Shown here: positions 43,156-64,000 of the stretch, piece by piece
Layout: the number at the start of each line of letters is the position of its first letter
How positions within the stretch are numbered: position 1 is the stretch's first letter
Origin: a virus
IMG/VR virus record: IMGVR_UViG_3300009776_000830
Strand: one strand, 5' to 3'
Length of the DNA: 64,000 nt
Notes under the pieces: generated by a model
Database searches by the model: none
What the model saw: the letters and a program-made list of their open reading frames with translations, nothing else
Told to the model about the DNA's origin: nothing
Translations under genes and position numbers: made by a program

Positions 43156-43281
43156 ATGAAAACTAAAACAGTAGAAGAGCAATATGTTCAGCTAGAACAT
43201 CGAGAACAAATTCTTTTAGGAGAGACCGATTTTTTTTACAAATGCTTCAGAACATTTATGACATTTTTTATTAATATATAA
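43156..43281 (+). pseudogene. Orphaned original 5' end of the topoisomerase II gene (21 homologous codons, then unrelated sequence)
   Basis: MKTKTVEEQYVQLEHREQILL|GETDFFYK..* versus MKEIKKTVEEQYVQLEHREQILL|RPDT at 45040. Confidence 0.9.
43165..43218 (+). repeat. Perfect 54-bp direct repeat, copy 1
   Basis: AAAACAGTAGAAGAGCAATATGTTCAGCTAGAACATCGAGAACAAATTCTTTTA identical to 45055..45108. Confidence 0.97.
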
Positions 43282-43295
43282 AAATAAAAAATAAT

Positions 43296-45053
43296 ATGAT
43301 AATTGATACAAAAACAAAAATAAAATTGACTAAAAAATTAATTAATAAGTATAATTATAATGGAAATCCTGGTGATGTTATAGAGATTGATATCGAAAAT
43401 CTTCCAAATAATAGTATGAAATTAATAAAAGTTAAATGTGATATATGTGAGTCCGAAAGAAGCTTGCCGTATAGAACATATATGAAGAATTATTTAAAAT
43501 ACAATTTATATACGTGTTATGGTTGTAGTAGAATAAAATATGAAAAAACTTCCATTATTAAATTTGGGGTCAATAATCCAATGCAAAATGATGAAATAAA
43601 AAATAGATTAAAAGACACAATATTGAACAAATATGGAAGAGAATTTTATTTACAAACAGATGATAAAAAAGAAAAGGGTACTCAAACCTGCCTAACCAAA
43701 TATGGTGTTGAAAATCCGATGCAGGACACAAAAATAAAAAATAAGGCAAAAAACACAAAAAGAGAAAAATATGGAGATCATTATGAAAAGATAACAGAAA
43801 AAATAATAAAAACTAAAAAAGAGAAATATGGAGAGCATTATGAAAAGATAACAGAAAAAATAAATCTTACAAATGTAAAAAAATATGGATGTGATTATCC
43901 TTTACAAAATAAAGACATTTATAATAAATCTATAGAAACGTCAATTAATAAATATGGAATGCATCCAAATAAATGTTCGTTTATAAAAGATAAACAATTG
44001 ACGACATTATCAAATACCACTTTTCAAAAAATAAAAAACAAATATCCAGATATAAATTTTATATCTAAAGAGAACTGTCAATATACAATAAAATGTGACG
44101 ATTGTGGATTAGAGTATAAGATCAGTTTTAATTTATTTTTTCTTAGAAAATCAAACAATATAACGCTTTGCACTTTATGTAATGATCCAAAATTAAAACA
44201 TAAATCGGATTTTGAGCATCAAGTTATTAATTTTTTAGAAAAGAATGAAGTTAAATGTCAACCAAATTATAGAAAAATTTTAAATGGGAAAGAAGTAGAT
44301 ATATATCTTCCAGATTATAATATGGCTATTGAATGTAATGGGATTTTCTGGCATTCTGAATTATATAAATCAAAAAATTATCATAAAAATAAAAGCGAAG
44401 AATGTAAAAAAGTGGGGGTCGAACTTCTACACATATGGGAAGATGACTGGATATATAAACAAGATATAATAAAATCAATAATATTAAATAAATTAGGAAA
44501 AATAAAAAATAAAATTTATGCAAGAAAATGTGAAATATTAGAAATAAATGACAATAATATGGTTAAAAATTTTCTAGATGAAAATCATATTCAAGGATTT
44601 GTTAAATCTTCATTTAAAATTGGATTATTTTATAATAAAGAACTAGTTAGTTTGATGACTTTGGGTTATAGAATGATAAATTCTAAAAAAGAGTTTGAGC
44701 TCATAAGATTTTGTAATAAAAAATACACGAATGTAATAGGGTCAGCTAGTAGATTATTTAAAAATTTTATAGAAAAAATAAATAAACCATTTAAAATTAT
44801 CAGCTATTCCGATTCATCCCTTTTCAATGGTAATATGTATTTAAAAATTGGATTTGAATTAATTGGAGATACATCTTTAAATTATTATTGGGTTGTTGAT
44901 GGCATCAGAAACCATAGGTTCAAATATAATAAAAAAAAGTTAGTGATGATGGGAAATGATCCAAATAAAACAGAATATGAAATCATGACGGAGAATAATT
45001 ACTATAGGATATGGTCATGTGGAATGAAAAAATGGATATATGAAAGAAATTAA
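43296..45053 (+). CDS. Hef-like free-standing homing endonuclease (Zn ribbon, KYG repeats, Vsr/PD-(D/E)xK nuclease, conserved C-domain)
   Basis: VKCDICE, KYG repeats, EVDIYLPDYNMAIECNGIFWH, IWEDDW, NHIQG, ELIRFC, YRIWSCG. Confidence 0.85.
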   Translation: MIIDTKTKIKLTKKLINKYNYNGNPGDVIEIDIENLPNNSMKLIKVKCDICESERSLPYRTYMKNYLKYNLYTCYGCSRIKYEKTSIIKFGVNNPMQNDEIKNRLKDTILNKYGREFYLQTDDKKEKGTQTCLTKYGVENPMQDTKIKNKAKNTKREKYGDHYEKITEKIIKTKKEKYGEHYEKITEKINLTNVKKYGCDYPLQNKDIYNKSIETSINKYGMHPNKCSFIKDKQLTTLSNTTFQKIKNKYPDINFISKENCQYTIKCDDCGLEYKISFNLFFLRKSNNITLCTLCNDPKLKHKSDFEHQVINFLEKNEVKCQPNYRKILNGKEVDIYLPDYNMAIECNGIFWHSELYKSKNYHKNKSEECKKVGVELLHIWEDDWIYKQDIIKSIILNKLGKIKNKIYARKCEILEINDNNMVKNFLDENHIQGFVKSSFKIGLFYNKELVSLMTLGYRMINSKKEFELIRFCNKKYTNVIGSASRLFKNFIEKINKPFKIISYSDSSLFNGNMYLKIGFELIGDTSLNYYWVVDGIRNHRFKYNKKKLVMMGNDPNKTEYEIMTENNYYRIWSCGMKKWIYERN

Positions 45054-46818
45054 AAAAACAGTAGAAGAGCAATATGTTCAGCTAGAACATCGAGAACAAA
45101 TTCTTTTAAGACCAGACACCATAATAGGAAGCACCAAAACAGATGAGAGAGATCTGTTTGTTATGGATGGGGATAAAATCAAGATGAGAACGGTGAATTA
45201 TAATCCTGGTTTCTTTAAGATTTATGATGAAATTTTAACCAACGCATCCGATCATTATATTAGGACGAAACAAGTCAAATATATTAAAATTAATATTGAG
45301 GGCGATAATATATCAATAGAAAATGATGGGCCTGGTATACCAGTTCAAATTCATAAGAAAAAAAAGGTTTATGTACCGGAGCTTGTCTTTGGGCATCTTT
45401 TGACATCAGAAAACTATGATGACACCATAGAAAGGACTTGGGGTGGAAGAAATGGAATTGGTGGAAAAGCAACAAACATTTTCTCTAAAAAATTTATTAT
45501 CGAAACATCAGATGGTAAGAAAAAATATTATCAAGAATTTTTTGATAATATGTCTGACAAAACAAAACCAGAAATAATATCTAGTAGAAAAAATTATACA
45601 AAAATAAAGTTCTATCCAGATTTTTCAAGATTTGGAATATCCGATATAGATGGAAATATTCAAAATCTTATGATGCGGCGAGCAGTTGATGTTGCGGCAT
45701 ATTGCTCTGGCATAAAGATATACTTCAATGATACCATAATACCGATAAAGACATTCAAAGATTATATGAAAATGTATGAAATCGATGAGGATAACATTTT
45801 TTATGAAAAGATAAATGATAATTGGGAGATAGGAGTTTCAGCATCAGTAGATAATAATTTCAATCAAGTTTCTATGGTCAATGGCATATCTACCTATAAT
45901 GGTGGAACACACGTTAATATCATAATAAATCAAATAACAAAGGCTGTCCAAGAAATTTTATCTAAAAAATATAAAAACTTGAATATAAAGCCAGCTGACA
46001 TAAAAAATAGATTGTTTTTGTTTGTGAATTGTAAAATTGTCAATCCAGAGTTTAACGAGCAATCAAAAGAGACATTGAATACTAAAATTATAGATCAACC
46101 AAAAGTTTCAGACGCTTTAATAAAGAAAATAACTAGCTCGAATTTCATAAAGGAATTAGTGGATTTTTTACACGTCAAAGAAAGTTTGGACACAAAAAAG
46201 GAAATAGGAAAACATAAAATAAAAATTTCTAAACTGGATGACGCTCGTAAAGCTGGAACGTATGAGAGCGATAAATGTTATTTGACATTATGTGAAGGGG
46301 ACTCAGCCGCCGCTTCAGTTATGGCTGGACTTTCTGAAGTGGATTCGAGTTATTGGGGAATTTTTCCTTTAAGGGGGAAACCAATGAATGTTAGAGATGC
46401 AGCTCTTCAAAAAATAAGAGAAAATGAAGAAATAAAAAACATCATCAATATACTTGGCCTTGAATTTGGAAAAAAATATACAGATACATCAAAATTAAGA
46501 TATGGTAAAGTAGTATTAATGGCTGATGCAGACTGTATAGATGAAAACACAATGATTCTAACTAAAAGAGGATATGTGTCTATAAAAGATCTAAATTACG
46601 AGGATTGTGTCATGACTCATGAAAACAGATGGAAAAAAATTAAAAAAATTATAAAAACTAAGAAAACAAATCTGATTAAATTAACAATAAACAACGAAGA
46701 TTATTTTTTCGGAGAAAATCATGAGATTCCAGTGTTGAGAAATGGAGAAATCGTTTTAGTAAAAGTGAAGGATATATTAATTACTGATAAATTATTAAAA
46801 AGAAAAAACGAACTTTAA
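45040..46818 (+). CDS. Type IIA DNA topoisomerase N-half (GHKL ATPase, transducer, first part of TOPRIM; 498 aa) fused to a split-intein N-fragment
   Basis: EILTNASDH, ENDGPGIP, GGRNGIGGK, LCEGDSA, PLRGKPMNV, MADAD then CIDENT. Confidence 0.95.
   Translation: MKEIKKTVEEQYVQLEHREQILLRPDTIIGSTKTDERDLFVMDGDKIKMRTVNYNPGFFKIYDEILTNASDHYIRTKQVKYIKINIEGDNISIENDGPGIPVQIHKKKKVYVPELVFGHLLTSENYDDTIERTWGGRNGIGGKATNIFSKKFIIETSDGKKKYYQEFFDNMSDKTKPEIISSRKNYTKIKFYPDFSRFGISDIDGNIQNLMMRRAVDVAAYCSGIKIYFNDTIIPIKTFKDYMKMYEIDEDNIFYEKINDNWEIGVSASVDNNFNQVSMVNGISTYNGGTHVNIIINQITKAVQEILSKKYKNLNIKPADIKNRLFLFVNCKIVNPEFNEQSKETLNTKIIDQPKVSDALIKKITSSNFIKELVDFLHVKESLDTKKEIGKHKIKISKLDDARKAGTYESDKCYLTLCEGDSAAASVMAGLSEVDSSYWGIFPLRGKPMNVRDAALQKIRENEEIKNIINILGLEFGKKYTDTSKLRYGKVVLMADADCIDENTMILTKRGYVSIKDLNYEDCVMTHENRWKKIKKIIKTKKTNLIKLTINNEDYFFGENHEIPVLRNGEIVLVKVKDILITDKLLKRKNEL
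45055..45108 (+). repeat. Perfect 54-bp direct repeat, copy 2
   Basis: Identical to 43165..43218. Confidence 0.97.
46534..46815 (+). mobile_element. Split intein N-fragment (IntN, 94 aa)
   Basis: Cys1 block A CIDENTMILT directly after DAD; block B FGENHEI; ORF ends shortly after. Confidence 0.9.
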
Positions 46819-48480
46819 ATTTCCAGAGTCATATATTCTATAAATTTTTCTCTCAAGCATTATATCGTGTTCGGTCTTGCTCGGATCAAATCCTTGTTTA
46901 ACTAGCTCATCTTTTCTAAAACCAAATCTATGCTTTCTCACACCATCGATAATATAATAATAATTAGGCTCGGTCTTTCCAACAAGCTTGAAACCAAGTT
47001 TTTTATATAACTCTCCTTGACTCCAAGACCTGTCAGCATAGCTGGTCACTTCTTTTGGCTCAAAGTTTTTAACAAAAAATTTGAACAGTCTTGAAGCTCC
47101 TCCAACAACACTGGTGTTCAGCTTGTTACAGAACCTTAGCATCTCGTAGGATCCATCGTGTGAACTTTGTCCCATAGCCCTTCTCAAGCTTCCAAAGGTC
47201 ATTAAAGAAACAAGTTCTTCTTGATAAAAAAGACCGATCTTGATCTTTGAACCGACGAACCCTTGAATGTGGTTCGTTTCAAGGAAATCTTTAACTAATT
47301 TATTATTATTAACCTCTTTCATATCACATTTTCTAGCATAGATCTTATTTGGAGTCTTGTTCAACAAATTCAGAATTCTAGATTTAACGATTTCTTGTTT
47401 ATACAACCATTCATCCTCATAAATATGAATGAGTTTAATCTCTTGTTTTTCTGCTAGTTCAGTTTTTTCAAGATGATAATTGTTTGACTTGTTCAATTCA
47501 TTATGCCACCATATTCCATTAAATTCAAAAGCTATTTTTAAATCAGGTATATAAATATCTAGCTCACCGTTTATTGTTTTCCTATCTGATGATAAAACTT
47601 TATAATATTTTTCAATAAATTCTTTTACTTGAATTTGACCACCAGATGTATAATATGTTGGATTACAAATATTACAGATTTTCAATCCGGATCTGGCTCT
47701 ATTGTAGATGACATGTTTAGGCACAATGAATGTATGATCTTTTCCACAATCACATTTACATTCACACAAATTTGTATTTGATATTGATAAAATTGTAAGA
47801 ATTTTTTCAAAATTTTTTATAAATGATTCTTTAAATTTATCTTTACATTCAATAGTGTTATTATAATAATCGCCATATCTTTCTACACTTGTTTCATATT
47901 GTTTGTTTTTAAAATCTTTAAATTGAAGAGGATGTTCCACTCCATATTTTTCGAGAAGAACATTTTTTATTTTTACTTTGACTGACTCATCTTGAAATAA
48001 ATTTTCTACTCCGTATTTCTCCAAACATGTCTTTTTATATCTATCTTTAAAAATATTTGTTTTGCTTGTATGTTCAACTCCATATTTTTCTAAACATGTC
48101 TTTTTATATTTTTTTTTAACAATATCACTTTTCTTTGGGTGCGAAACTCCATATTTTTTCAATGATGACTTTTTAAGTTTTTCTTTTGTGTCGATATTCA
48201 AAGTTGAACATCTTGTAGAACAAAAAGTTCTATATCCTAATGTTTTATTTAAAAATTTAACTATTCTACCACATTCTTTACAAGTTGGAACATTATTCAT
48301 GTTATTAACGAATAAATAAACTTTTTCTTTAAAAGATAATCGATCAAAATCGAACTTATTCGAATAATCAACAATTTGTTCATAAATTTCATGACAATTT
48401 TTCATCAAATATTCTTCTCTGGAATATTTTCCAGAATCATTTTTTGTTAAATACAATTTTTCAAAATCAATTATTGTCAT
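46795..48480 (-). CDS. Hef-like homing endonuclease inverted between the intein halves
   Basis: PTCKECG, FCSTRC, KYG repeats, ELDIYIPDLKIAFEFNGIWWH, NHIQG, EMLRFC, YRIYDSG. Confidence 0.88.
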   Translation of the reverse strand: MTIIDFEKLYLTKNDSGKYSREEYLMKNCHEIYEQIVDYSNKFDFDRLSFKEKVYLFVNNMNNVPTCKECGRIVKFLNKTLGYRTFCSTRCSTLNIDTKEKLKKSSLKKYGVSHPKKSDIVKKKYKKTCLEKYGVEHTSKTNIFKDRYKKTCLEKYGVENLFQDESVKVKIKNVLLEKYGVEHPLQFKDFKNKQYETSVERYGDYYNNTIECKDKFKESFIKNFEKILTILSISNTNLCECKCDCGKDHTFIVPKHVIYNRARSGLKICNICNPTYYTSGGQIQVKEFIEKYYKVLSSDRKTINGELDIYIPDLKIAFEFNGIWWHNELNKSNNYHLEKTELAEKQEIKLIHIYEDEWLYKQEIVKSRILNLLNKTPNKIYARKCDMKEVNNNKLVKDFLETNHIQGFVGSKIKIGLFYQEELVSLMTFGSLRRAMGQSSHDGSYEMLRFCNKLNTSVVGGASRLFKFFVKNFEPKEVTSYADRSWSQGELYKKLGFKLVGKTEPNYYYIIDGVRKHRFGFRKDELVKQGFDPSKTEHDIMLERKIYRIYDSGNLKFVFSF

Positions 48481-48632
48481 ATGATTATATCATCTATATT
48501 TTTTCCTATTTTTTTAAAATAATTAAACAATATCCACTCTATAAGCTTTGACTTGTTTTTTGTATTATCATTTAACAGCTCTAATATTTTTGGATTTATT
48601 GTAAAAGTTGTTCCAATTTTTTTTGTTATCAT
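48477..48632 (-). CDS. Ribbon-helix-helix (CopG-like) protein, 51 aa; stop overlaps the endonuclease start (ATGA)
   Basis: Manual translation MITKKIGTTFTINPKILELLNDNTKNKSKLIEWILFNYFKKIGKNIDDIII. Confidence 0.7.
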   Translation of the reverse strand: MITKKIGTTFTINPKILELLNDNTKNKSKLIEWILFNYFKKIGKNIDDIII

Positions 48633-48707
48633 AAACTTTTTTTATTTGTATATATTAATATTTAAAAGTCAAAAACCATTATTTTTACAATTATTTTACA
48701 TTATTAT

Positions 48708-48818
48708 TTAAAGATGAATATGATCAACCACAACAACATCGACACTTTCTTTATTCATAGAACTCATTATGTCTATACAATCTCCTAAATATAATTCAAC
48801 ATTTTGAAATTTATCCAT
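48708..48818 (-). pseudogene. 5' stub (36 aa) of an N4/N6 DNA methyltransferase
   Basis: MDKFQNVELYLGDCIDIMSSMNKESVDVVVVDHIHL*: typical GDC..SVD..D(PPY) start, truncated where DPPY should be. Confidence 0.7.
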
Positions 48819-48931
48819 TTTTATTTTTTTTTATTTATATATTAAATTGAAAAACCATTATTTTTCCATTATTTTGTTTTTCAAACTATAAAATAATATT
48901 AAGATATATAAAAAAAAAATGATTATTGTTT

Positions 48932-49117
48932 ATGGTAAATAGATTAAAAAATGAAGAAAAACGGAAAAATCTTCCAGTTTCTTTAAATAGAAAATTATAT
49001 GATATTCTAGAAGAAGTTTGTGCCGAAAAAGATGTTAATAAATCAAAATTAGTGGAGAAACTGATAAGAGAATATCTAAAAGAAGAAAAAGGAATAGACA
49101 CAAGCTCTATAATATAA
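48932..49117 (+). CDS. Ribbon-helix-helix (CopG-like) protein, paralog of 48477..48632
   Basis: LPVSLNRKLYDILEEVCAEKDVNKSKLVEKLIREYL. Confidence 0.8.
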   Translation: MVNRLKNEEKRKNLPVSLNRKLYDILEEVCAEKDVNKSKLVEKLIREYLKEEKGIDTSSII

Positions 49118-49135
49118 AAAAGAAGCAAGAGAATA

Positions 49136-49285
49136 ATGGATTTAAATATAAAAGATTTTGAAGTTTTAAATATAGATAATATAAAGAAAATAGAAAAAGA
49201 AACCACAATGTATGATATCGAAGTGGAAGACGATAATACATTTTACATATCTAAAAATCAAAAAGATGATATATTAGTTCATAAT
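49136..49285 (+). mobile_element. Split intein C-fragment (IntC, 50 aa)
   Basis: Block F MYDIEVEDDNTFY, block G ILVHN followed by Cys+1. Confidence 0.92.
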
Positions 49286-51067
49286 TGTGATGGAGATCAT
49301 ATAAGGGGATTGATTATAAATCTTTTTGACACATTTTGGCCGGAACTTTTAAAATTAAATTTTATCTATGATTTCATAAGCCCTATAGTCAAGATCACAA
49401 ATGGAAAAACTGTAAAATATTTTTATAGATTAAGTGAATATCAAAAAGAAAAAGATAAATATAAGGGATTGGAAATCAAGTGGATAAAGGGGTTAGGCAC
49501 GATAAGTCCAGACGAAATGAAATTGTTTTTTAAAAATATTAAAAAACACCTCATTCCTTTTCATTATGACAATAAAGATACAGAAGAGCTCATTGATATG
49601 GTTTTCAACACGAAACGATCGGACGATAGAAAAGAATGGATGAAAAATTATGAGCCGAAAGATATTATAGATAAATTTTCAACAAAACAGACATTTGATA
49701 AATTTATAAACACAGAGCTTATGGAATGGAGTATGGCAGATAATAATCGTGTCATACCAAGTGCTATTGACGGATTGAAGCCTGGCCAGCGCAAAGTTAT
49801 TTATACTTTGTTTAAGAAGGGGCTCAAAGGAGAAATAAAAGTCAGTTCTTTATCAGGCTCTGTCATTCAGGATGCGGCTTATCATAATGGGAATGTTTCT
49901 ATTGAGCAAACCATAATAGGAATGGCTCAAGATTTTGTTGGCTCGAATAATTTGAATCTGATATTACCAAAGGGGCAATTTGGATCGCGTTTGAAAGGCG
50001 GAAGCGATGCGGCAGCATCTAGATATATTTTCACAAAATTTAACGATATAACTAGTTATATTTTTAGAAAAGAAGACAATGATATTTTAACATATCTAGA
50101 TGATGATGGATTTTTAATCGAACCAAAATATTACGTTCCGATTATACCAATGATATTAGTGAATGGAGCGAAGGGAATAGGTTCTGGTTATTCGACAGAG
50201 ATACCTTCATATAATCCTATGGATATAATAATCTATCTCCAAAATAAAATAAAGAAAAAGAAAAATATAGAATTAAATCCATTCTATAAAGATTTCAAAG
50301 GTGAGATAATCTTAGATATAGAAAATCGAAGATATATTACCAGGGGGGTTTTGAAAAAATTAAATGAAACAACATATGAAATAAATGAGCTTCCGATAGG
50401 AATTTGGAATTCAAATTACTATGAATTTTTGGATGAGCTGTCAGAAGATAAGAAAGATAAAAATGGAAAGATTATTCGTAAATCTATAATAAGAGATTGG
50501 AGCAAAAATGGTAATGATAAAGAAGTAAAAATAAAGATTTATTTTTATAAAGACATCGATGATGATTATTATAATGATATATTCAAAAATCTAAGATTAG
50601 AAACGTATGTTTCATTTAATAATATGCATCTTTTTGATAAAAATAAGAAGATAAAAAAATATAATAATCAGTATGAAATTATTGATGATTTTTATGAAAC
50701 GAGAATAGAATATTATGATAAAAGAAAAAATCATTTATTAGACGATTTAAATTATGATATTAGCGTTTTGAAAAACAGAATTATGTTTGTCAAAGCTGTT
50801 GTTGACGATAAGTTAGTTATAAACAAAAGAAGTCGCGAGCAAATAGAAAAAGATATAGCGTCTTTAAATCTAATGAAAATAAATGACTCATATTCATATT
50901 TATTGAATATGTCAATATCTAGTTTGACAAAGGAAAAGTTGATAGATTTAAAAGAAGAATATGACAAAAAAAAGAATGATTTAAAACTTTTGAAAGAAAA
51001 AACAATAGAAGATATGTGGTTGGAAGAACTAGAAATTTTAAAAAAGGAATTGAAAAAATATGAATGA
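49136..51067 (+). CDS. Split-intein C-fragment fused to topoisomerase II C-half (rest of TOPRIM + breakage-reunion domain, 593 aa)
   Basis: VHN|CDGDHIRGL, KWIKGLGT, IPSAIDGLKPGQRK, YHNG, AAASRYIF (catalytic Tyr), PMILVNGAKGIGSG. Confidence 0.95.
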   Translation: MDLNIKDFEVLNIDNIKKIEKETTMYDIEVEDDNTFYISKNQKDDILVHNCDGDHIRGLIINLFDTFWPELLKLNFIYDFISPIVKITNGKTVKYFYRLSEYQKEKDKYKGLEIKWIKGLGTISPDEMKLFFKNIKKHLIPFHYDNKDTEELIDMVFNTKRSDDRKEWMKNYEPKDIIDKFSTKQTFDKFINTELMEWSMADNNRVIPSAIDGLKPGQRKVIYTLFKKGLKGEIKVSSLSGSVIQDAAYHNGNVSIEQTIIGMAQDFVGSNNLNLILPKGQFGSRLKGGSDAAASRYIFTKFNDITSYIFRKEDNDILTYLDDDGFLIEPKYYVPIIPMILVNGAKGIGSGYSTEIPSYNPMDIIIYLQNKIKKKKNIELNPFYKDFKGEIILDIENRRYITRGVLKKLNETTYEINELPIGIWNSNYYEFLDELSEDKKDKNGKIIRKSIIRDWSKNGNDKEVKIKIYFYKDIDDDYYNDIFKNLRLETYVSFNNMHLFDKNKKIKKYNNQYEIIDDFYETRIEYYDKRKNHLLDDLNYDISVLKNRIMFVKAVVDDKLVINKRSREQIEKDIASLNLMKINDSYSYLLNMSISSLTKEKLIDLKEEYDKKKNDLKLLKEKTIEDMWLEELEILKKELKKYE

Positions 51068-51864: not shown

Positions 51865-52266
51865 ATGAATTTGAAAAAATTTGAGGGATTCGATAATAAA
51901 AAAGATCTAGAGACATCGGTGTTACAAAATCTTCTTGAATTATCCAAGGATGAAAAAAAATTTGATAAAGCTGTTGTGGCTTTGTATATGAATAGTTCTA
52001 TATCAATGGAGGTTATAAACTCCTTTTACGAATCAATAGGTAGAAAATCTATATTGGAAGACGATCCATTTGGTGAAGATGCTGATTTACCAGCACCTCC
52101 AAGGCGATCACCGACACGATTTTTTGATGCTTGTCATACTACAACTACAAGAACAGTTGGTTGTGGTGGCGGCGCTGGTCAGGAAGCGGCTCATCGGCCA
52201 AGAAGAAGAGGAAGAGCTAGAGGTTTCGGAATAAGTTGTGGCGGCAATCAAGGAGGAGGATGTTAA
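51865..52266 (+). CDS. CTS-like protein with Gly/Cys/Arg-rich C-terminal tail (possible modified-peptide precursor)
   Basis: MNLKKFEGF, DDPFGED, C-terminal VGCGGG..ISCGGNQGGGC. Confidence 0.65.
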   Translation: MNLKKFEGFDNKKDLETSVLQNLLELSKDEKKFDKAVVALYMNSSISMEVINSFYESIGRKSILEDDPFGEDADLPAPPRRSPTRFFDACHTTTTRTVGCGGGAGQEAAHRPRRRGRARGFGISCGGNQGGGC

Positions 52267-53158
52267 ATTCATTTTTATGATTTTATTTGATAAGGAAATA
52301 CCAATAAGAACTCATCATTGTAGTGTGTTTGATCAACCACCGAAAGAGGTTGAAATCCCTTATGTTAATTTGTATATAAGATTCAAAGGATGTAATGCCA
52401 AATGTAAATTTTGTGAATATTCTGACACAGCGAATAAATTTAATATTGAAAAATTTAAATTCATATTAGAAGAATTAAAGAAAAATATAAGCATTAAAAA
52501 AGTTTCTTTGACTGGGGGCGAACCAACATTAAATTTCGATAAATTTAAAGAAATTACTCTTCTTGCAAACGAAATATTGAACGAGTCAGCTTTTGTGTTG
52601 AACACTAATGGATTTAATTTACAAAAAATATTTAATGATGAAGTTTTGGGATATATTGATAATATATCAATAAGTCGCCACCATTATAATGATGATTTGA
52701 ATAATGAGATCTTGGGATTAAATACGATAAGATCTAGTGAATTAAAAGAATATGCTGCCGAATACGAAGATACTGAATTATTACATTTTAGTTGTAATTT
52801 AACAAAAGGATATATAGATTCGAAAAAAGAAATATTAAAATATTTGGAATATACGAATGATACTAATGTGCATAGTGTTGGTTTTGTTCAACTTATGCCT
52901 ATAAATGATTATTGTAAAGAACATTTCGTTCATATTGATTTAGATTCTTTATTAAGTAAAAGATTTAATTTGTTGAAAAGAACAAAAAAACTAGGGGCCT
53001 GTGAATGCAATAATTACGTCTATATACCAAAGAAAATGAAAAATTCTGCTGTAAGAGTATATTATAAAAATACTTATTTTCCAGAAAAAATGATAAATGA
53101 TCTAACTTTCGATGGCGAAAATCTTTTTTACGGATTCGATGGTGTAAAAATTGTTTAA
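52238..53158 (+). CDS. Radical SAM enzyme (likely start ATG 52277)
   Basis: CNAKCKFC (CxxxCxxC), SLTGGEPT, LNTNG, ISISRHH. Confidence 0.92.
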   Translation: MAAIKEEDVKFIFMILFDKEIPIRTHHCSVFDQPPKEVEIPYVNLYIRFKGCNAKCKFCEYSDTANKFNIEKFKFILEELKKNISIKKVSLTGGEPTLNFDKFKEITLLANEILNESAFVLNTNGFNLQKIFNDEVLGYIDNISISRHHYNDDLNNEILGLNTIRSSELKEYAAEYEDTELLHFSCNLTKGYIDSKKEILKYLEYTNDTNVHSVGFVQLMPINDYCKEHFVHIDLDSLLSKRFNLLKRTKKLGACECNNYVYIPKKMKNSAVRVYYKNTYFPEKMINDLTFDGENLFYGFDGVKIV

Positions 53159-53190: not shown

Positions 53191-54174
53191 ATGTTTAAAG
53201 AAGGTTTAGTTTGTGGTAAATTTGAAGTGTTGCATAAAGGACATTTAGCTCTAATAGATTTTGCTAGAAATAGATGTGATAAACTGAATATTTTATTATG
53301 TTCGAATGAAAAATATGAATTGATACCTGGTCGAACAAGATTTCAATGGTTAAAAGAAACATATAAATATGACAATAAAATTAATGTGGAATATACAGAT
53401 GTAGATTTGCCATATACTTCTGAATCAAATAGAGATGTTGCTGAAGTTTGGTCGAATTATTTCAAAAAATTATATCCAGAATTATATGTCATATTTACTT
53501 CAGAAAAATATGGTGATTATGTTGCTGAATACATGAAAATCGAGCATATTATGTTTGATGAAAAAAGAATTTCAAAACCAATAAGCTCGACAGAAATAAT
53601 AAAAAGACCTCTATCAAATTGGGATTTTATATCAGATGTGGCCAAACCATATTTTGTTAAAAAAATTGTTTTATTTGGAACTGAATCAACTGGAAAATCC
53701 ACCTTCTCAGAAAAACTAGCTAAAGAGTTTTCAACAAATTGTGTTCTTGAAAGATCTAGAGATATAATGACAAATACAGATACTTGCACTTATGAAGATA
53801 TGTTTATTTTAGCCGAAATGCATTCCAATGATATAAATAAAGGCATTATAAATTCAAACAAGATGATTTTTGTAGATACAAATATAGAAACTATAAAAGT
53901 TTATTCCGATTTCTTATTTAATAAGAAACCGTCATTTAAAAATTGGATCGAACAATCGAACAAGGCTGATTTATATATATTTTTATCAAACGACGCCCCA
54001 TATGTTCAAGATGGAACCAGGCTCAATTTAGAAAGAAGAAATAGATTGAATGATATGGAATTAGAACACTTGATAAAAAATAATCTAAACTTTGAAATCG
54101 TAAAAGGACAGAATTGGGACGAAAGGTATCAAAAAGCTATTCAAATAATTAAAAAATTTAAAGAAAATTTATGA
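53191..54174 (+). CDS. nadR: NadR-like bifunctional NMN adenylyltransferase / nicotinamide-riboside kinase (no HTH)
   Basis: GKFEVLHKGH (HxGH), FTSEKYG, Walker A GTESTGKST, FVDTN, YVQDGTR. Confidence 0.88.
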   Translation: MFKEGLVCGKFEVLHKGHLALIDFARNRCDKLNILLCSNEKYELIPGRTRFQWLKETYKYDNKINVEYTDVDLPYTSESNRDVAEVWSNYFKKLYPELYVIFTSEKYGDYVAEYMKIEHIMFDEKRISKPISSTEIIKRPLSNWDFISDVAKPYFVKKIVLFGTESTGKSTFSEKLAKEFSTNCVLERSRDIMTNTDTCTYEDMFILAEMHSNDINKGIINSNKMIFVDTNIETIKVYSDFLFNKKPSFKNWIEQSNKADLYIFLSNDAPYVQDGTRLNLERRNRLNDMELEHLIKNNLNFEIVKGQNWDERYQKAIQIIKKFKENL

Positions 54175-56111
54175 AAAAATTATTACTCATTTTATTATTG
54201 TTTTCCACTTGCTTTTTAATGTATGGTCAAGACACCATCAATTTAAAAGAAGTAGATATTATATCTTTTTATAGAGCGGACAAAAAGATACCAGTAACAC
54301 AAAAAACTGCAATTACTGAAAATTCTTATACAGAAGAGGTTCCGATATATCTATCAAAAACACCATCTATAACATCAAATTCTGATGGTGGTCATAATAT
54401 AGGATATTCCTATATGAGACTTAGAGGAATAGATCAAACAAGAATAAATTTTACTTTAGATGGAATACCTTTAAATGAGCCTGAGGATCAAGGCTTTTAT
54501 TCATCTAATTTTCCTGATTTTGTCGCATCAACATCTTCAACACAGATTATAAGGGGAGTCGGTCCTTCAAATTATGGAGTGTCTTCTTATGTGGGTTCAG
54601 TTAATTTTGAAAGTAAGAATTTGCCAGATTCAGCATATCTAAAATTAATAAGAGATTTTGGATCTTATAACACAAACAAAAGAGGATTCGAAATAAATAC
54701 TGGTTCTTTAAAAAATCTAGCCCTTTATTATAGAATATCTAGTATGAATACAGATGGTTATAAAGAACATTCTGGTTCTGATGGATACTCGAGTTTTTTT
54801 AAAATAGGATACTTTAAAAAAAATGATATTTTTAAATTTTCATTTTTCAATGGTAATGTTAATAATAATCTGGCTTGGTATGGTGTAACAAAAAAAGAGA
54901 TAGAGGATTATGGTAGAAGATATAATGCAAATACAATTAACGAAGATGATGAATATAAAGAAACTCTCGCATATCTACAATATATTCATAACATAAATAA
55001 TAAATCAGATATAACAACATCTGTATATTACAGCAAATTAGATGGTTATTGGGCTTATGATTATGGAGATATAATAAAATATAATGTTAGATCTAATTTA
55101 TACGGACTAACAACAAATTATGTTTTTAATAAGAATAATTTCAAAATAAATGTCGGCATAAATGGGAGCACATATAATAGATTACATTTTGGCGAAACGA
55201 ATATAAAATTATATGAGAACAAAGGAATAAAAAACAATTTGAATACTTATTCAAAATTATCTTATTCGAAAAGAAATTTTACAACTTATATTGATCTGCA
55301 AGAGTCTTTTATTAGTTATGATTATGTGAAAGACATAATAGATCCAATATCGGTTGGTATGAATAAGAAGGAATGGCGGTTCTTTAATCCAAAAGCTGGT
55401 TTATCATACAATTTTAATAATAATAAAATATATTTATCAGTAGGTAAAATGCAACGTGAACCAACTCGGGCAGATATGTTTGGTGGGTTAGATAATTTAG
55501 ATGTGAATAATATAAATTTCACCAATATATCTCCAGAAGATGTTATTGATTATGAAATTGGTTTAAATATTGATAAAAAATCATTAAAATATAATTTGAA
55601 TTATTTCTATATGGATTTCAATAATGAAATAACATTGTCCGGTGCATTAGGTCAAAATGGTTTGCCGTTAATGACGAGTGTGGATCGAAGTTTTCGATCT
55701 GGATTTGAGAGCGATTTAGATGTTTTATATAAGAACTTTGAATTAAACAACAATTTTACTTTTATGTACAATGAAATAAAAACTGACTCTGGTAATTTCA
55801 AACCAGTTATGACACCAGATTTTTTAATAAACACATCTTTAACTTACAATTATAAAAAATTTGAATTATCTATGACACATAAATATATATCAAAACGATA
55901 TATAGATCTAGAGAATACATCAACTTTAGATCCATTTCAAGAACTCGGTATGAACTTAAAATATAAAACTAAAAATTTTGACATTTCTTTTATTACAAAT
56001 AATTTGACCAATGAAAAGAATTTTTCAACAGCTTACTTGAGTTATGGTGAAATTTTATATATGGTTTCTGCTGAAAGAAATTATTATTTATCTTTAATTT
56101 TTAAATTATAA
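54171..56111 (+). CDS. TonB-dependent outer-membrane receptor (Bacteroidetes vitamin-uptake type)
   Basis: Signal peptide; plug SDGG..GYSYMRLRGIDQTRINFTLDGIPLNEPEDQ, QIIRGVGPS; FFNPKAG, PEDVIDYEIG; C-terminal beta-signal. Confidence 0.88.
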   Translation: MKKLLLILLLFSTCFLMYGQDTINLKEVDIISFYRADKKIPVTQKTAITENSYTEEVPIYLSKTPSITSNSDGGHNIGYSYMRLRGIDQTRINFTLDGIPLNEPEDQGFYSSNFPDFVASTSSTQIIRGVGPSNYGVSSYVGSVNFESKNLPDSAYLKLIRDFGSYNTNKRGFEINTGSLKNLALYYRISSMNTDGYKEHSGSDGYSSFFKIGYFKKNDIFKFSFFNGNVNNNLAWYGVTKKEIEDYGRRYNANTINEDDEYKETLAYLQYIHNINNKSDITTSVYYSKLDGYWAYDYGDIIKYNVRSNLYGLTTNYVFNKNNFKINVGINGSTYNRLHFGETNIKLYENKGIKNNLNTYSKLSYSKRNFTTYIDLQESFISYDYVKDIIDPISVGMNKKEWRFFNPKAGLSYNFNNNKIYLSVGKMQREPTRADMFGGLDNLDVNNINFTNISPEDVIDYEIGLNIDKKSLKYNLNYFYMDFNNEITLSGALGQNGLPLMTSVDRSFRSGFESDLDVLYKNFELNNNFTFMYNEIKTDSGNFKPVMTPDFLINTSLTYNYKKFELSMTHKYISKRYIDLENTSTLDPFQELGMNLKYKTKNFDISFITNNLTNEKNFSTAYLSYGEILYMVSAERNYYLSLIFKL

Positions 56112-56146
56112 AATAATTTTTTACTTTTGTAAAAATAAAAAAAAAA

Positions 56147-56557
56147 ATGAATGTAAGAGTTGGTGTCGGTGTAATAGTCTATTATGAAAACAAAATTTTT
56201 CTATTGAAACGACAAGGCTCGCACGGATCTGGTGAATGGAGTTTTCCAGGAGGACATTTAGAATATTTTGAAACATTAGAAGATTGTGCCTGTCGCGAAG
56301 TCAAAGAAGAATTAGATATTGAAATAGAAAATTTGAAATTTCTGACCATAACCAATGATATTTTCGAAAAGGAGAATAAACATTACATAACAATATATTT
56401 TACATCAGACTATAAATCAGGTGATTATAAAATAATGGAGCCAGATAAAGCTACTGATATCGGACTATTTGATAAAAATGAATTGCCCGAGCCATTGTTT
56501 CTTCCAATAAGGAATTTGTTAGAAAATGAAAAAAAATTGAATTATAAATATTTATGA
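56147..56557 (+). CDS. Nudix hydrolase (MutT/NUDT15-like)
   Basis: WSFPGGHLEYFETLEDCACREVKEE Nudix box; MEPDK. Confidence 0.93.
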   Translation: MNVRVGVGVIVYYENKIFLLKRQGSHGSGEWSFPGGHLEYFETLEDCACREVKEELDIEIENLKFLTITNDIFEKENKHYITIYFTSDYKSGDYKIMEPDKATDIGLFDKNELPEPLFLPIRNLLENEKKLNYKYL

Positions 56558-59883: not shown

Positions 59884-62800
59884 ATGAGTTTCAAGAAAAT
59901 ACAATTAATAGATCCATTAACAATAGGCTGTCCCGAGATTGGTCACATTTATTTGGGTAGAGATGCAACAGGTCTTTGGGAGAAAAGAGATAATTGCGAA
60001 ATAGTTTATTTGGCTTTTGCTGAAAGTGGATCAACAAATGGTATAGATGGCACGTCAGGCTCCTCGGGTAGAGACGGAACATTTTTAGGAACTCACGGCA
60101 CGTCAGGCACTTCTGGTCGAACTGGAACATCTGGAACATCAGGAAGAACAGGAACATCTGGAACATCTGGTGGTCCTGGAACTTCTGGAACATCAGGCAA
60201 ATCAGGTACATCTGGTTCATCTGGAACTTCAGGATTTGGTGGAACAGCTGGAACATCAGGAACATCTGGTGAAAGTGGAACATCTGGAACATCTGGCTCA
60301 TCAGGCTCGTCAGGTACGTCTGGCTCATCAGGCTCGTCAGGCATAGATGGCATAGATGGTGGATATGGTGCAGCAACTAGAGAATGGACATACACAATCA
60401 ATTCAATTCCAACAAATGGCGAATTTTATACTGATGCTATAAATTTTGGTTCGACCACAATCAGAATTAATAGATTTGATGATAGCGGAGCAGATCAAAT
60501 AGAATGGCTTAGAACTTGGAGTACAGTATCTGGAATATTAAAAATAGAAGACCGTAATGATGCCAGCATTTTTGGTTTATATAGAGTACCATATGACTCT
60601 GTTAATCAGGTTGGTAATTTCTTTGAGTTATCTAATTTTATTAATTTATCTGCTTCCGGGGAGACATTTGATGGTAGTGATTATTTGATTTCATTTATAG
60701 GTGCAACTGGAGATAGATACGCAACTACTTCAAATACAACGATATCTATACCAACTTCATCAGGTAATACTATACTTTTAACTGGTGGCACAGGATTGGC
60801 ATATAGCGTTGGTCAAGAAATTCTCATAGCATATGATACAGGACATACTTTTACGGCTCAAGTAGTATCCTATGATCCATTAACAGGTGAATTTGTTTTG
60901 ATATCTGAAAGTAATGTAGGAACAGGAACTTTTTCTGATTGGTATATAAATTTAATGGGGGCACCTGGTCAAGAGGGGCCTGCTGGAACATCAGGCACAT
61001 CTGGTAAAGATGGCCCAACTGGTACAAGCGGCACGTCTGGTTTAACTGGTACGAGTGGTACATCTGGAAGAGACGGAACAAGTGGTACATCTGGAAGAGA
61101 TGGAACAAGTGGTACATCTGGAAGAGACGGGACAAGTGGAACATCTGGTACTTCTGGTACATCTGGAACATCAGGCACTTCTGGTGTTACAGGGACAGCA
61201 GGTACATCAGGATTAACTGGAACATCAGGCACATCAGGATTAACTGGAACATCAGGCACATCAGGAGAAACAGGAACATCTGGTACTTCTGGAAAGCAAG
61301 GGACTTCTGGCACTTCAGGAATTTCTGGTACAGCAGGTTCTTCAGGATTAACTGGAACATCAGGCACATCAGGATTAACTGGAACATCAGGCACATCTGG
61401 TACTTCAGGCACTTCTGGGAAACAAGGCACTTCTGGCACTTCTGGCACTTCAGGAATTTCTGGTACAGCAGGTACAGCAGGTTCTTCAGGATTAACTGGA
61501 ACGTCTGGATCAAGTGGAACAAGCGGATTAACTGGAACTTCTGGAACTAGCGGATTAACTGGAACTTCTGGAACTAGCGGATTAACTGGAACTTCTGGAA
61601 CATCAGGTACATCTGGAACAAGTGGTTTAACTGGCACTTCTGGTTCATCTGGTACATCTGGAATATCAGGCACATCTGGAACATCAGGATTAACTGGAAC
61701 TTCAGGAACATCAGGATTGACAGGTACATCAGGTACTTCTGGCACTTCAGGTACATCAGGCAAAGAAGGCACATCTGGTTCTTCAGGTACATCAGGTACT
61801 TCTGGAACTTCAGGAACATCAGGAACATCAGGATTGACAGGCACGTCAGGTACTTCTGGAACATCAGGAACATCAGGATTGGCAGGCACATCAGGTACTT
61901 CTGGAACTTCAGCAACTAGTGGAACATCAGGTACATCAGGATTGGCTGGCACATCTGGTACATCTGGCACATCTGGTTCATCTGGAACCAGTGGTCATTC
62001 AGGGACATCAGGTACTTCTGGAACCTCAGCAACTAGTGGAACATCAGGTACTTCTGGAACTTCAGCAACTAGTGGAACATCAGGTACATCGGGATTAGCT
62101 GGAACATCTGGCACATCTGGTTTATCTGGAACAAGTGGAACAGCCGGTACATCAGCAACATCTGGCACATCTGGAACATCAGGATTAACAGGCACATCTG
62201 GTTCTTCAGGCACTTCTGGATTAACAGGAACATCAGGTACTTCAGGATTAGCTGGAACATCTGGTACATCTGGAACGAGTGGTTCATCAGGCACATCGGG
62301 TACTTCAGGTGTAACAGGCACATCAGGCACGTCTGGATTAACAGGCACATCGGGCACATCAGGACAAACAGGCACTTCAGGCACTTCTGGCGTTGGTCCA
62401 ACAGGGGAGTCTGGCACATCTGGTACATCTGGCACATCTGGTTTAACTGGAACCAGTGGAACATCAGGAAAAGAAGGAACTTCTGGTTCTTCGGGTTCAT
62501 CTGGGACAAGTGGAAATTCAGGCACATCAGGAACTTCTGGTACTTCTGGTACTTCAGGTACTTCAGCAACCAGTGGAACATCTGGCGTTTCAGGTACTTC
62601 TGGCACTTCTGGAATTAGTGGAACATCAGGTGTATCAGGTACTTCTGGTTCATCTGGAACAAGTGGATCATCAGGAACATCTGGTATTTCAGGATCTTCA
62701 GGTACATCAGGAACTTCAGGTACATCAGGAACTTCTGGGACTTCAGGTACATCAGGAACTTCTGGGACTTCAGGTACATCAGGAACTTCTGGGTTTTCAG

Positions 62801-64000
62801 GTACATCAGGAACATCAGGCACTTCAGCAACCAGTGGAACATCAGGTGTATCAGGTACTTCTGGTTCATCTGGAACCAGTGGAACATCAGGTTCATCAGG
62901 CACTTCAGGTTCATCTGGGGCAAGTGGAACATCAGGCACTTCAGCAACCAGTGGAACATCAGGCATATCAGGCACTTCAGGTTCATCCGGGACCAGTGGT
63001 TATTCAGGAACATCGGGTACTTCTGGAACTTCTGGTACTTCAGGTATTTCAGGAACCAGTGGTTCTTCAGGAACCAGTGGATATTCAGGAACCTCAGGTA
63101 CTTCTGGGACTTCAGGAACTAGTGGAATAAGTGGGACTTCTGGAACTTCAGGAACTAGTGGATATTCAGGAACTTCAGGCACTTCAGGAACATCAGCAAC
63201 CAGTGGAACATCAGGTTATTCTGGCACATCTGGTTCATCTGGTACTAGTGGTTATTCAGGAACTTCAGGTACGTCAGGTTTGACAGGAACATCAGGCACA
63301 TCTGGTTCATCTGGGACAAGTGGTTCTTCTGGGGCATCTGGAACTTCTGGTACTTCAGCAACTAGCGGAACATCAGGTACTTCAGGCACATCTGGAAAAC
63401 AGGGAACATCTGGTTCATCGGGTTCTTCTGGAACCAGTGGTTATTCAGGAACATCAGGTACTTCTGGAACTTCAGCAACTAGCGGAACATCAGGCACTTC
63501 AGCAACTAGCGGAACATCAGGAACTTCAGCAACTAGCGGAACATCAGGCACTTCAGCAACTAGCGGTACATCTGGTTCATCTGGTTATTCTGGAACTAGC
63601 GGATTTAGTGGCACATCTGGAACTAGCGGATTTAGTGGTACATCTGGAACATCTGCAACTAGTGGAACATCTGCAACTAGTGGAACATCTGGCGCTTCTG
63701 GTACTAGTGGAACTTCAGGGACTTCCGCAACTAGTGGAGCATCTGGAACATCTGGATCATCTGGAACAAGTGGTTCTTCTGGGACATCTGGAACTTCTGG
63801 TACTTCAGCAACTTCTGGAACATCTGGAGCTTCTGGTACTAGTGGAACTTCAGGGACTTCCGCAACTAGTGGAACATCTGGGTCATCTGGATCATCTGGT
63901 ACTTCAGGAACATCTGGTACTTCAGGAACTTCTGGTACTTCAGGAACTTCTGGTACTTCAGGAACTTCTGGTGTCGGCGGAACATCAGGCACGTCTGGAT
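59884..64000 (+). CDS. Giant Gly-Thr-Ser collagen-like tail-fibre protein (3' truncated, >1370 aa; absent from the ORF track)
   Basis: ATG 59884 [16 protein letters not shown]..; I saw no in-frame stop to the window end; G-X-Y tracts flank a ~200-aa globular insert (60361-60957). Confidence 0.9.
60958..64000 (+). repeat. 9-nt-period Gly-X-Y coding repeat (mostly GGN ACN TCN)
   Basis: Gly in register at all spot-checked positions, with a register shift at ~62389 (GVGPT). Confidence 0.95.

Follow-up and report, generated by a model that had tools for sequence, protein, structure and literature searches.

A type IIA topoisomerase gene of a huge phage, apparently fractured by a naturally split intein within the TOPRIM metal-binding motif

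In the fractured genes described by Dassa et al. (2009; PMC2677866), a phage replication or repair enzyme is interrupted by a split intein whose break lies at the canonical endonuclease-insertion loop, and a free-standing endonuclease gene of the Vsr-like or GIY-YIG type lies between the two halves, although some loci carry no endonuclease. The hosts reported there are gp41, IMPDH, DnaE, NrdA, NrdJ, ligase and terminase, with loci such as gp41-1, gp41-8, NrdJ-1, IMPDH-1 and NrdA-2, and no topoisomerase or gyrase is among them. Contiguous inteins are already known in GyrA/GyrB and in the Top2 of Cafeteria roenbergensis virus (CroV). Here, a type IIA topoisomerase gene on the viral DNA IMGVR_UViG_3300009776_000830 was analysed; the whole 64,000-nucleotide (nt) stretch is referred to below as the window. 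Judged by its layout, this locus is a fractured gene in the sense of Dassa et al., with topoisomerase II as a new host. A preliminary description of the same DNA knew of no fractured topoisomerase II, and a full-text literature search, which covered few subscription journals, likewise turned up no account of a type II topoisomerase with a naturally split intein. We put at roughly 85% the probability that the gene is fractured by such an intein and that the enzyme is made by class-1 protein trans-splicing. A type IIA topoisomerase cut at its metal-binding motif would thereby join the short list of proteins made by natural trans-splicing.

The window locus shares with the genes of Dassa et al. 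the features named above, and the gp41-1 intein is the nearest sequence match of its N-terminal intein half (IntN). Its host, however, is a different one, its endonuclease gene runs in the reverse direction and encodes a Mom-like GNAT domain, and ribbon-helix-helix (RHH) genes and a methyltransferase stub are also present; in addition, its relatives show three different split sites in one enzyme. The CroV Top2-a intein also lies in a viral single-chain type IIA topoisomerase, but it is contiguous, contains a complete internal homing endonuclease and belongs to a giant virus of eukaryotes (PMC3423634, Table 3). In phage T4, as in the window, a type II topoisomerase gene is split by a free-standing endonuclease gene, there mobA; however, the T4 locus has no intein, gp39 and gp60 are believed to associate by way of charged tails and not covalently, and the split lies after TOPRIM and not inside the DxDxD motif (PMC3045599). 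The Ssp and Npu DnaE inteins resemble the window intein in being naturally split and of class 1, with Cys1 and Cys+1, in what is or may be an essential replication enzyme, the halves being ~100 and 36 amino acids (aa) long compared with 94 and 50 aa here. The halves of the cyanobacterial DnaE gene, in contrast, are widely separated in a cellular genome, and the interval contains no endonuclease. The polarity of charge is also reversed: DnaE split inteins pair an acidic IntN with a basic C-terminal half (IntC), and the window intein pairs a basic IntN with an acidic IntC.

Inspection of the open reading frames (ORFs) showed that the topoisomerase is encoded in two halves separated by a gap of 2317 nt, each half carrying one part of the intein (Table 1). 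In Pfam, the N-extein matched HATPase_c, DNA_gyraseB (E 1.4e-19) and a partial Toprim (residues 415-498), and the C-extein matched TOPRIM_C (E 1.2e-30) and DNA_topoisoIV (E 4.9e-103). Together, the exteins (498 + 593 = 1091 aa) show the feature set of a single-chain type IIA topoisomerase with fused B and A parts, in which DxDxD is complete only once the halves are joined. Full-length intein-free homologues of 1078-1105 aa are collinear with the joined exteins and read D-x-D-x-D-G-x-H-I across the junction, indicating that the break falls inside the TOPRIM DxDxD, after the second Asp and before the residue that precedes the third Asp. The preliminary description had the N-half ending in LMADAD and a 94-aa IntN, the C-half starting with a 50-aa IntC followed by CDGDHIRGL, the halves 2.3 kb apart and the joined enzyme 1091 aa long, and the ORF list and the Pfam matches agreed with it to the residue. 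The likeness to fractured genes with a free-standing endonuclease, which it had also drawn, was borne out by a 561-aa ORF whose nuclease-domain model resembles I-Bth0305I.

Table 1. Position and content of the features at the split topoisomerase locus (window numbering)
Feature	Position	Strand	Content
Paralogous endonuclease gene, 585 aa	43296..45053	+	DUF7487; MTES_1575 E 1.9e-8; at the 5' end of the topoisomerase gene
N-half ORF	45040..46818	+	592 aa; ends ..GKVVLMADAD, Cys and 93 further residues, TAA
N-extein, 498 aa	45040..46533	+	GHKL ATPase, transducer, TOPRIM with EGDSA motif up to ..LMADAD
IntN (N-intein), 94 aa	46534..46818	+	From Cys1, then TAA; block-B His in ..FGENHEIP..; net charge +5
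Free-standing homing-endonuclease gene (putative), 561 aa	46795..48480	-	DUF7487 repeats, EDxHD/Vsr-like nuclease domain, C-terminal Mom-like GNAT
Small ORF, 51 aa	48477..48632	-	Directly upstream of the endonuclease gene, 4-nt overlap; no Pfam match
Divergent intergenic region	48639..48875		58-nt direct repeat, 48639-48696 and 48818-48875, 79% identical
DNA methyltransferase N-terminal stub, 36 codons	48708-48818	-	Flanked by the 58-nt repeats
Ribbon-helix-helix gene, 61 aa	48932..49117	+	RHH_9 E 7.9e-8; ends 18 nt before the C-half start
C-half ORF	49136..51067	+	643 aa; own ATG
IntC (C-intein), 50 aa	49136..49285	+	Block F ..MYDIEVEDDNTF.., block G ..ILVHN; net charge -7
C-extein, 593 aa and stop	49286..51067	+	Cys+1, third TOPRIM Asp (CDGDHIRGL), TOPRIM_C, breakage-reunion domain with ..SRYIFT.. 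Tyr

The intein halves were compared with those of related loci. Cys1 and the block-B His (H63) did not vary among 41 aligned IntN sequences, and in 31 aligned IntC sequences L47, H49, N50 and Cys+1 were invariant and block F (D-I-E..D-N.F) was nearly so. These four invariant residues of the C-half were present in all 69 of the split C-halves described below; in the window, blocks F and G read ..YDIEVEDDNTF.. and ..LVHN/C, where the slash marks the splice site. The intein halves were as well conserved as the exteins, the mean pairwise identity being 61.9% for IntN versus 62.3% for the extein, and 53.7% for IntC versus 55.6% for the extein. The lengths of the intein halves were fixed, at 91-98 aa for IntN (two at 110) and 49-57 aa for IntC, and their charges were complementary both in the window (Table 1) and as set means (+2.8 for IntN and -7.2 for IntC). 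A search of an IntN profile against the PDB, a comparison that the preliminary description had called for, returned the gp41-1 split intein (6QAZ) at E 5.9e-7, the AceL NrdHF intein at E 1.9e-4 and other inteins, and the block-B His of IntN aligned with that of gp41-1. A profile was needed for this result, as a single-sequence search reached gp41-1 at E 0.11 only. By these residues (Cys1, block-B His, terminal His-Asn and Cys+1), the intein is assigned as naturally split and of the class-1 type.

Structure prediction of IntN with IntC, each with a few extein residues, gave a complex with a score of 0.81, compared with 0.00 for the best of three controls. Three runs shared at least 90% of the contacts, and the predicted local distance difference test (pLDDT) of the partner was at least 79. 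In the calibration of this score, 51 of 78 solved complexes reached the mark, compared with 2 of 108 mismatched pairs. Because solved split inteins exist, the prediction shows a likeness to them and is not proof that this particular pair binds.

The split was found to be a real feature of the genome. The C-half sequence is present on five contigs and the N-half on three, the longest being 190,656 bp. In run X2, which comes from an independent sample and study, contigs cover 46279-46928, from the end of IntN into the end of the endonuclease gene, and 49097-49672, across the start of IntC, with zero differences to the window. These independent contigs over both junctions argue against the concern raised in the preliminary description, that the halves might not be contiguous in one genome. 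For its second concern, RNA splicing that rejoins a contiguous intein, a scan of 46400-49400 against Rfam by E-value showed no relevant family and no group I or group II intron. In a related locus (L014) the halves are only 66 nt apart with no ORF between them, and at the same site of L042 the distance is 159 nt, again without an ORF, implying that rejoining cannot in general depend on an intron or a ribosomal hop. Recoding of the stop codon, or read-through, was considered and rejected because the N-half ends in TAA, which serves as a stop more often than any other codon in the window, and because the frame is closed again further downstream.

The same break was then sought among relatives. 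A locus search with the C-half alone gave four loci and was repeated with an alignment as the query. In a protein search with the C-half, the best 120 clusters at 90% identity were examined, and the N-half search was scored on the IntN region. The results showed that 69 of the C-half clusters (626-649 aa) start with an IntC of 49-57 aa that ends in x-H-N and is followed by C-D-G-x-H-I, and that about 40 contiguous enzymes are also among these 120. The N-half search returned 47 proteins covering IntN, of ~590-616 aa, three of them being shorter fragments. Since about 69 C-half and 44 N-half clusters are broken at this point and carry homologous intein halves, the split lies far beyond chance. 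The window case is not unique to this genome but one member of a widespread, mobile family, and huge phages from both engineered and natural waters commonly show the arrangement. One relative of the N-half, P0122 (462 aa), has an IntN frame that runs past the usual end (..KTDKVLKRK) for ~120 more residues, and its IntN is apparently fused to a downstream ORF.

The sequence predicted for the ligated product was found in intein-free relatives. The full-length proteins closest to the window C-extein, P0007 (1094 aa) and P0009 (1093 aa), are 67% identical to it, and both lack the intein. Both read DADCDGNHI, which corresponds to the predicted ligation junction with the Cys kept, so that the comparison with intein-free enzymes suggested in the preliminary description gave DADCDG in each. 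Intein-free enzymes otherwise differ at the +1 position (V, A, N, L, H, S or C), suggesting that Cys is tolerated there. In a maximum-likelihood tree of the C-extein, P0007 grouped within the split clade to which the window belongs (99% support), and P0009 branched just outside it. The nesting of P0007 is best read as precise loss of the intein. The split state at the window's site (site b) required 20 parsimony changes on this tree, at least 16 of which are forced by well-supported branches, and the distance between some split and intact sisters is no more than ~0.05 substitutions per site. These data suggest that the element has often been gained or lost, and the patchy pattern fits a mobile element.

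Contiguous alleles at the window's site were sought by a profile search over 1.84 billion representatives. In P0190, a single-chain enzyme of 1232 aa, a short linker connects IntN to IntC, giving a contiguous mini-intein at the same site. Contiguous mini-inteins at this site were also found in the phage B subunits P0201, P0228, P0232 and P0238, which are 756-773 aa long. T4-type topoisomerases whose B and A subunits are separate proteins (L024, L025/L026 and L042) also contained the same split intein. The IntN of L025 is 47% identical to that of the window and its N-extein only 27%, which suggests transfer of the intein between distant topoisomerase genes. Beside the L025 topoisomerase, at L025:7489-10196, a second fractured gene was observed, in which an ATPase ORF ends ..GEPGTGK/C.. 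in an IntN-like tail and is followed by a 301-aa Vsr-like ORF and then by the remainder.

Under the trans-splicing model, the N-half and the C-half would be translated separately, and the basic IntN and the acidic IntC would associate with electrostatic help and fold into one HINT domain. An N-S acyl shift at Cys1 would be followed by trans-thioesterification, which would move the acyl group to Cys+1. The terminal Asn of IntC would then cyclise with the assistance of the penultimate His, and an S-N shift would make the peptide bond, yielding a single chain of 1091 aa (..MADAD-CDGDHI..) with the Mg-binding DxDxD intact. The gap endonuclease, or its relatives, would most likely spread the element into intein-free topoisomerase alleles of co-infecting phages. 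We infer the association in vivo, the splicing chemistry, the activity and target of the endonuclease and the essentiality of the enzyme from what is directly established here, namely the anatomy, the conservation, the homology to split inteins, the ligated sequence and contiguous alleles in relatives, and the predicted IntN-IntC complex.

Several points weigh against this model. None of the RNA runs searched for the window stretch contains it. The 561-aa ORF lies on the opposite strand, converges on IntN and overlaps its last 24 nt, so that convergent transcription could lower expression of the N-half. The Pfam Hint_2 match, which starts at residue 499 of the N-half (E 4.5e-4), scored 21.1 bits, below the gathering score of 28.4 bits. 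Block B has Gly in place of the canonical Thr (GENH); this objection is weak, as gp41-1 aligns SEEH at that position. The predicted complex may partly be the model's memory of solved split inteins. Finally, the T4 topoisomerase gp39/gp60, split by mobA, works without ligation, which implies that covalent joining is not strictly required (PMC3045599).

The last of these points leads to the alternative that survives best, although we consider it unlikely: the intein halves would serve as dimerisation tails only, and the enzyme would work as two chains. Phages offer precedents in T4 gp39/gp60 (proposed) and Aeh1 NrdA-a/NrdA-b (shown) (PMC3045599), and a tight predicted IntN-IntC complex would fit pure docking as well as splicing. 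Docking, however, needs neither Cys1 nor the block-B His, the His-Asn pair or Cys+1, yet all of these are invariant over 31-41 diverged sequences. Moreover, the break falls inside the DxDxD metal site, and the relatives in which the intein has been lost keep the exact ligated sequence DADCDG.

It is very improbable that the topoisomerase gene is simply broken, through insertion of an endonuclease cassette in a once-contiguous intein, and that the phage uses host enzymes. Such a reading would accommodate the two copies of one endonuclease family that have invaded the gene and the decayed genes in the gap, the methyltransferase stub among them, and host gyrase could in principle substitute for the phage enzyme. 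Both halves, however, are full-length open frames, dozens of clusters, at 47-78% identity, retain the split form with their frames undecayed and the intein lengths fixed, and IntC always has its own Met at a fixed distance before block F.

Rejoining at the level of RNA or translation (by an intron, RNA trans-splicing or ribosomal bypass, of which T4 topoisomerase gene 60 is the classic case) into a cis-splicing mini-intein, or an assembly artefact, is scarcely credible even though contiguous mini-intein alleles exist, since the 2.3-kb gap holds a reverse-strand gene and no Rfam intron match, the short gaps of L014 and L042 hold a stop and a start and nothing intron-sized, the N-half closes with TAA, and independent contigs cover both junctions, with the protein on 3-5 contigs.

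If the trans-splicing model holds, the locus may also be of practical use. The gp41-1 intein is the fastest split intein known. A relative of it with dozens of natural variants, contiguous alleles and, in related phages, a second co-resident split intein could supply raw material for orthogonal ligation tools.

The protein encoded in the gap was analysed by sequence and by fold. In Pfam, the 561-aa ORF matched DUF7487 (E 2.6e-35) and Mom (8e-4), and a sequence search against the PDB gave no match, so that fold searches were needed. The model of its nuclease domain (pLDDT 82) had as its top PDB match I-Bth0305I (3R3P; Foldseek E 3.2e-4, template-modelling score 0.78 by target, root-mean-square deviation 2.4 over 94 columns), and the Vsr entries 1CW0 and 1VSR appeared lower in the list of fold matches. 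Alignment with Escherichia coli Vsr by hhalign recovered one motif only, ELDIY..NGIWWH on Vsr residues 47-71, at a weak E-value of 0.022. Four residues, E39, D41, H59 and D89 (P0184:268-388 numbering), which are candidates for the catalytic E, D, H and D of the EDxHD enzymes, were invariant in 59 sequences. The C-terminal domain has a GNAT fold, with phage Mu Mom as the nearest structure (8BV8, E 3e-7) and GNAT matches reaching VIA Z 13.9.

I-Bth0305I is the type member of the EDxHD homing endonucleases, the 'Vsr-like' family that Dassa et al. were the first to predict, from fractured genes (PMC3239194). In the models, the window protein shares with it the fold of the catalytic domain, and the N-terminal DNA-binding region is modular in the two proteins. 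The gene for I-Bth0305I lies within a group I intron of recA, whereas the window protein is free-standing and carries DUF7487 repeats and a C-terminal GNAT/Mom-like domain. More than 4500 relatives of the window protein were found, and the 190,656-bp contig itself carries several of them. Among relatives, identity in the catalytic half is 60-79%, whereas the N-terminal DNA-binding repeats vary. The locus thus reveals an abundant family which, on modelled folds, is an EDxHD/Vsr-like nuclease fused to a GNAT domain closest to Mu Mom, a DNA-modifying enzyme.

The remaining genes of the gap are small or decayed (Table 1). The 51-aa ORF looks RHH-like by eye, a tentative assignment. In the gap of L017 (L017:3400-7001), a small RHH gene, a D12-class N6-adenine methyltransferase gene and an EcoRI-like nuclease gene form a complete-looking restriction-modification cassette, and the RHH gene and the methyltransferase stub of the window look like a decayed version of it. 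The 61-aa RHH protein is possibly a controller left from such a decayed cassette. Elsewhere, the gaps of L017 and L020 contain a reverse-strand ORF with DUF7487 repeats, those of L001, L024 and L025 a same-strand Vsr-like ORF, that of L021 a 390-aa ORF that is GIY-YIG-like by eye, and that of L014 nothing, as in the Dassa loci without an endonuclease. The gap between the intein halves is a landing pad for mobile genes, occupied by EDxHD-type, DUF7487-repeat or other candidate endonucleases, by a whole restriction-modification system, or by nothing.

A second member of the endonuclease family lies at the other end of the N-half. The 585-aa paralogue is 46% identical to the 561-aa ORF over the catalytic half. 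It is inserted after about codon 21 of the topoisomerase gene and is flanked by a perfect 54-bp duplication, in which 43165-43218 is identical to 45055-45108. The first 21 codons of the N-extein are thus duplicated upstream; the duplication restores the start, the frame and these codons, and the old 5' end is left as a short dead ORF.

Related topoisomerases are split at further sites. Site a (EGD/SA) was found in L004 (L004:8010-13114), L016 and L042; in L004 and L016 its IntN is ~170 aa long and a 376-aa endonuclease ORF lies between the halves. Site c (AAYHxGN/C), near the domain of the catalytic Tyr, was seen in P0168 (826 aa) and P0171 (802 aa), as N-parts only. In L042 (L042:482-6224; IMGVR_UViG_3300014838_001158), three separate pieces make up the topoisomerase B subunit. 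The first ends ..CEGD and continues into a long IntN, the 212-aa middle piece consists of an IntC (..SHN/SASS..), ~70 aa of TOPRIM up to ..NDAD and the site-b IntN, and piece 3 starts with the site-b IntC. At least eight middle pieces of 206-225 aa were found among the best 150 representatives at 50% identity (P0186, P0191, P0192, P0196, P0209, P0217, P0230 and P0290).

On balance, we lean slightly towards the view that phage topoisomerase II is a hot-spot for split inteins, with at least three independent sites (EGD/SA, DxD/CDG and YHxGN/C), and that in a sizeable group of phages TOPRIM is assembled from three polypeptides. As the middle piece begins with the C-half of one intein and finishes with the N-half of a second, two co-evolved and mutually orthogonal split inteins would have to act on one protein, and the site-b intein of the window is one partner of that putative pair. 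We know of no natural precedent for two split inteins on one chain or for multi-piece trans-splicing. If true, the three-piece case would provide a ready-made orthogonal pair for the ligation of three protein fragments.

The wider gene content of the window was also examined. A search of sequencing runs showed that the window DNA is present in anaerobic-digester and activated-sludge metagenomes. One ORF in the window fuses a baseplate-hub OB domain to a muramidase or tail lysozyme (Pfam Phage_base_V and Muramidase; PHROG 430 and 1224). The best GenBank phage match of the C-extein lies in a 735,411-bp 'uncultured phage' (LR756501/LR756503), with 58% identity from residue 49; this relative lacks the intein. 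The source of the window is a huge tailed phage, in keeping with the phage origin that the preliminary description had assumed. A giant-virus origin, suggested by GVMAG contigs and intein-free 1087-aa enzymes among the first related loci, was considered; it was dropped because of the baseplate hub-lysozyme ORF and the 735-kb phage match, the GVMAG enzymes being only ~41% identical. A scan for sigma-70 promoters was uninformative, with 44 sites compared with 47 expected from shuffles.

Other genes in the window include glutamyl-tRNA synthetase (GluRS) and two tRNA-Val genes. Downstream of the C-half, at 51865-53158, a 133-aa ORF with a G+C-rich tail that is rich in Cys, Gly and Arg is followed directly 3' by a radical SAM gene (Radical_SAM E 9.5e-13); the two may be a peptide-modification pair. 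The region 53191-56557 holds a row consisting of a NadR-like gene (cytidylyltransferase-like and AAA_28), a gene for a TonB-dependent receptor with a plug domain, and a Nudix hydrolase gene; an outer-membrane receptor gene is unusual on a phage genome. At the end of the window (59884-64000), a collagen-like fibre is encoded by a collagen-repeat ORF of more than 1372 aa (Pfam Collagen E 3.8e-136), which accounts for the rise in G+C there from ~27% to 44-48%.

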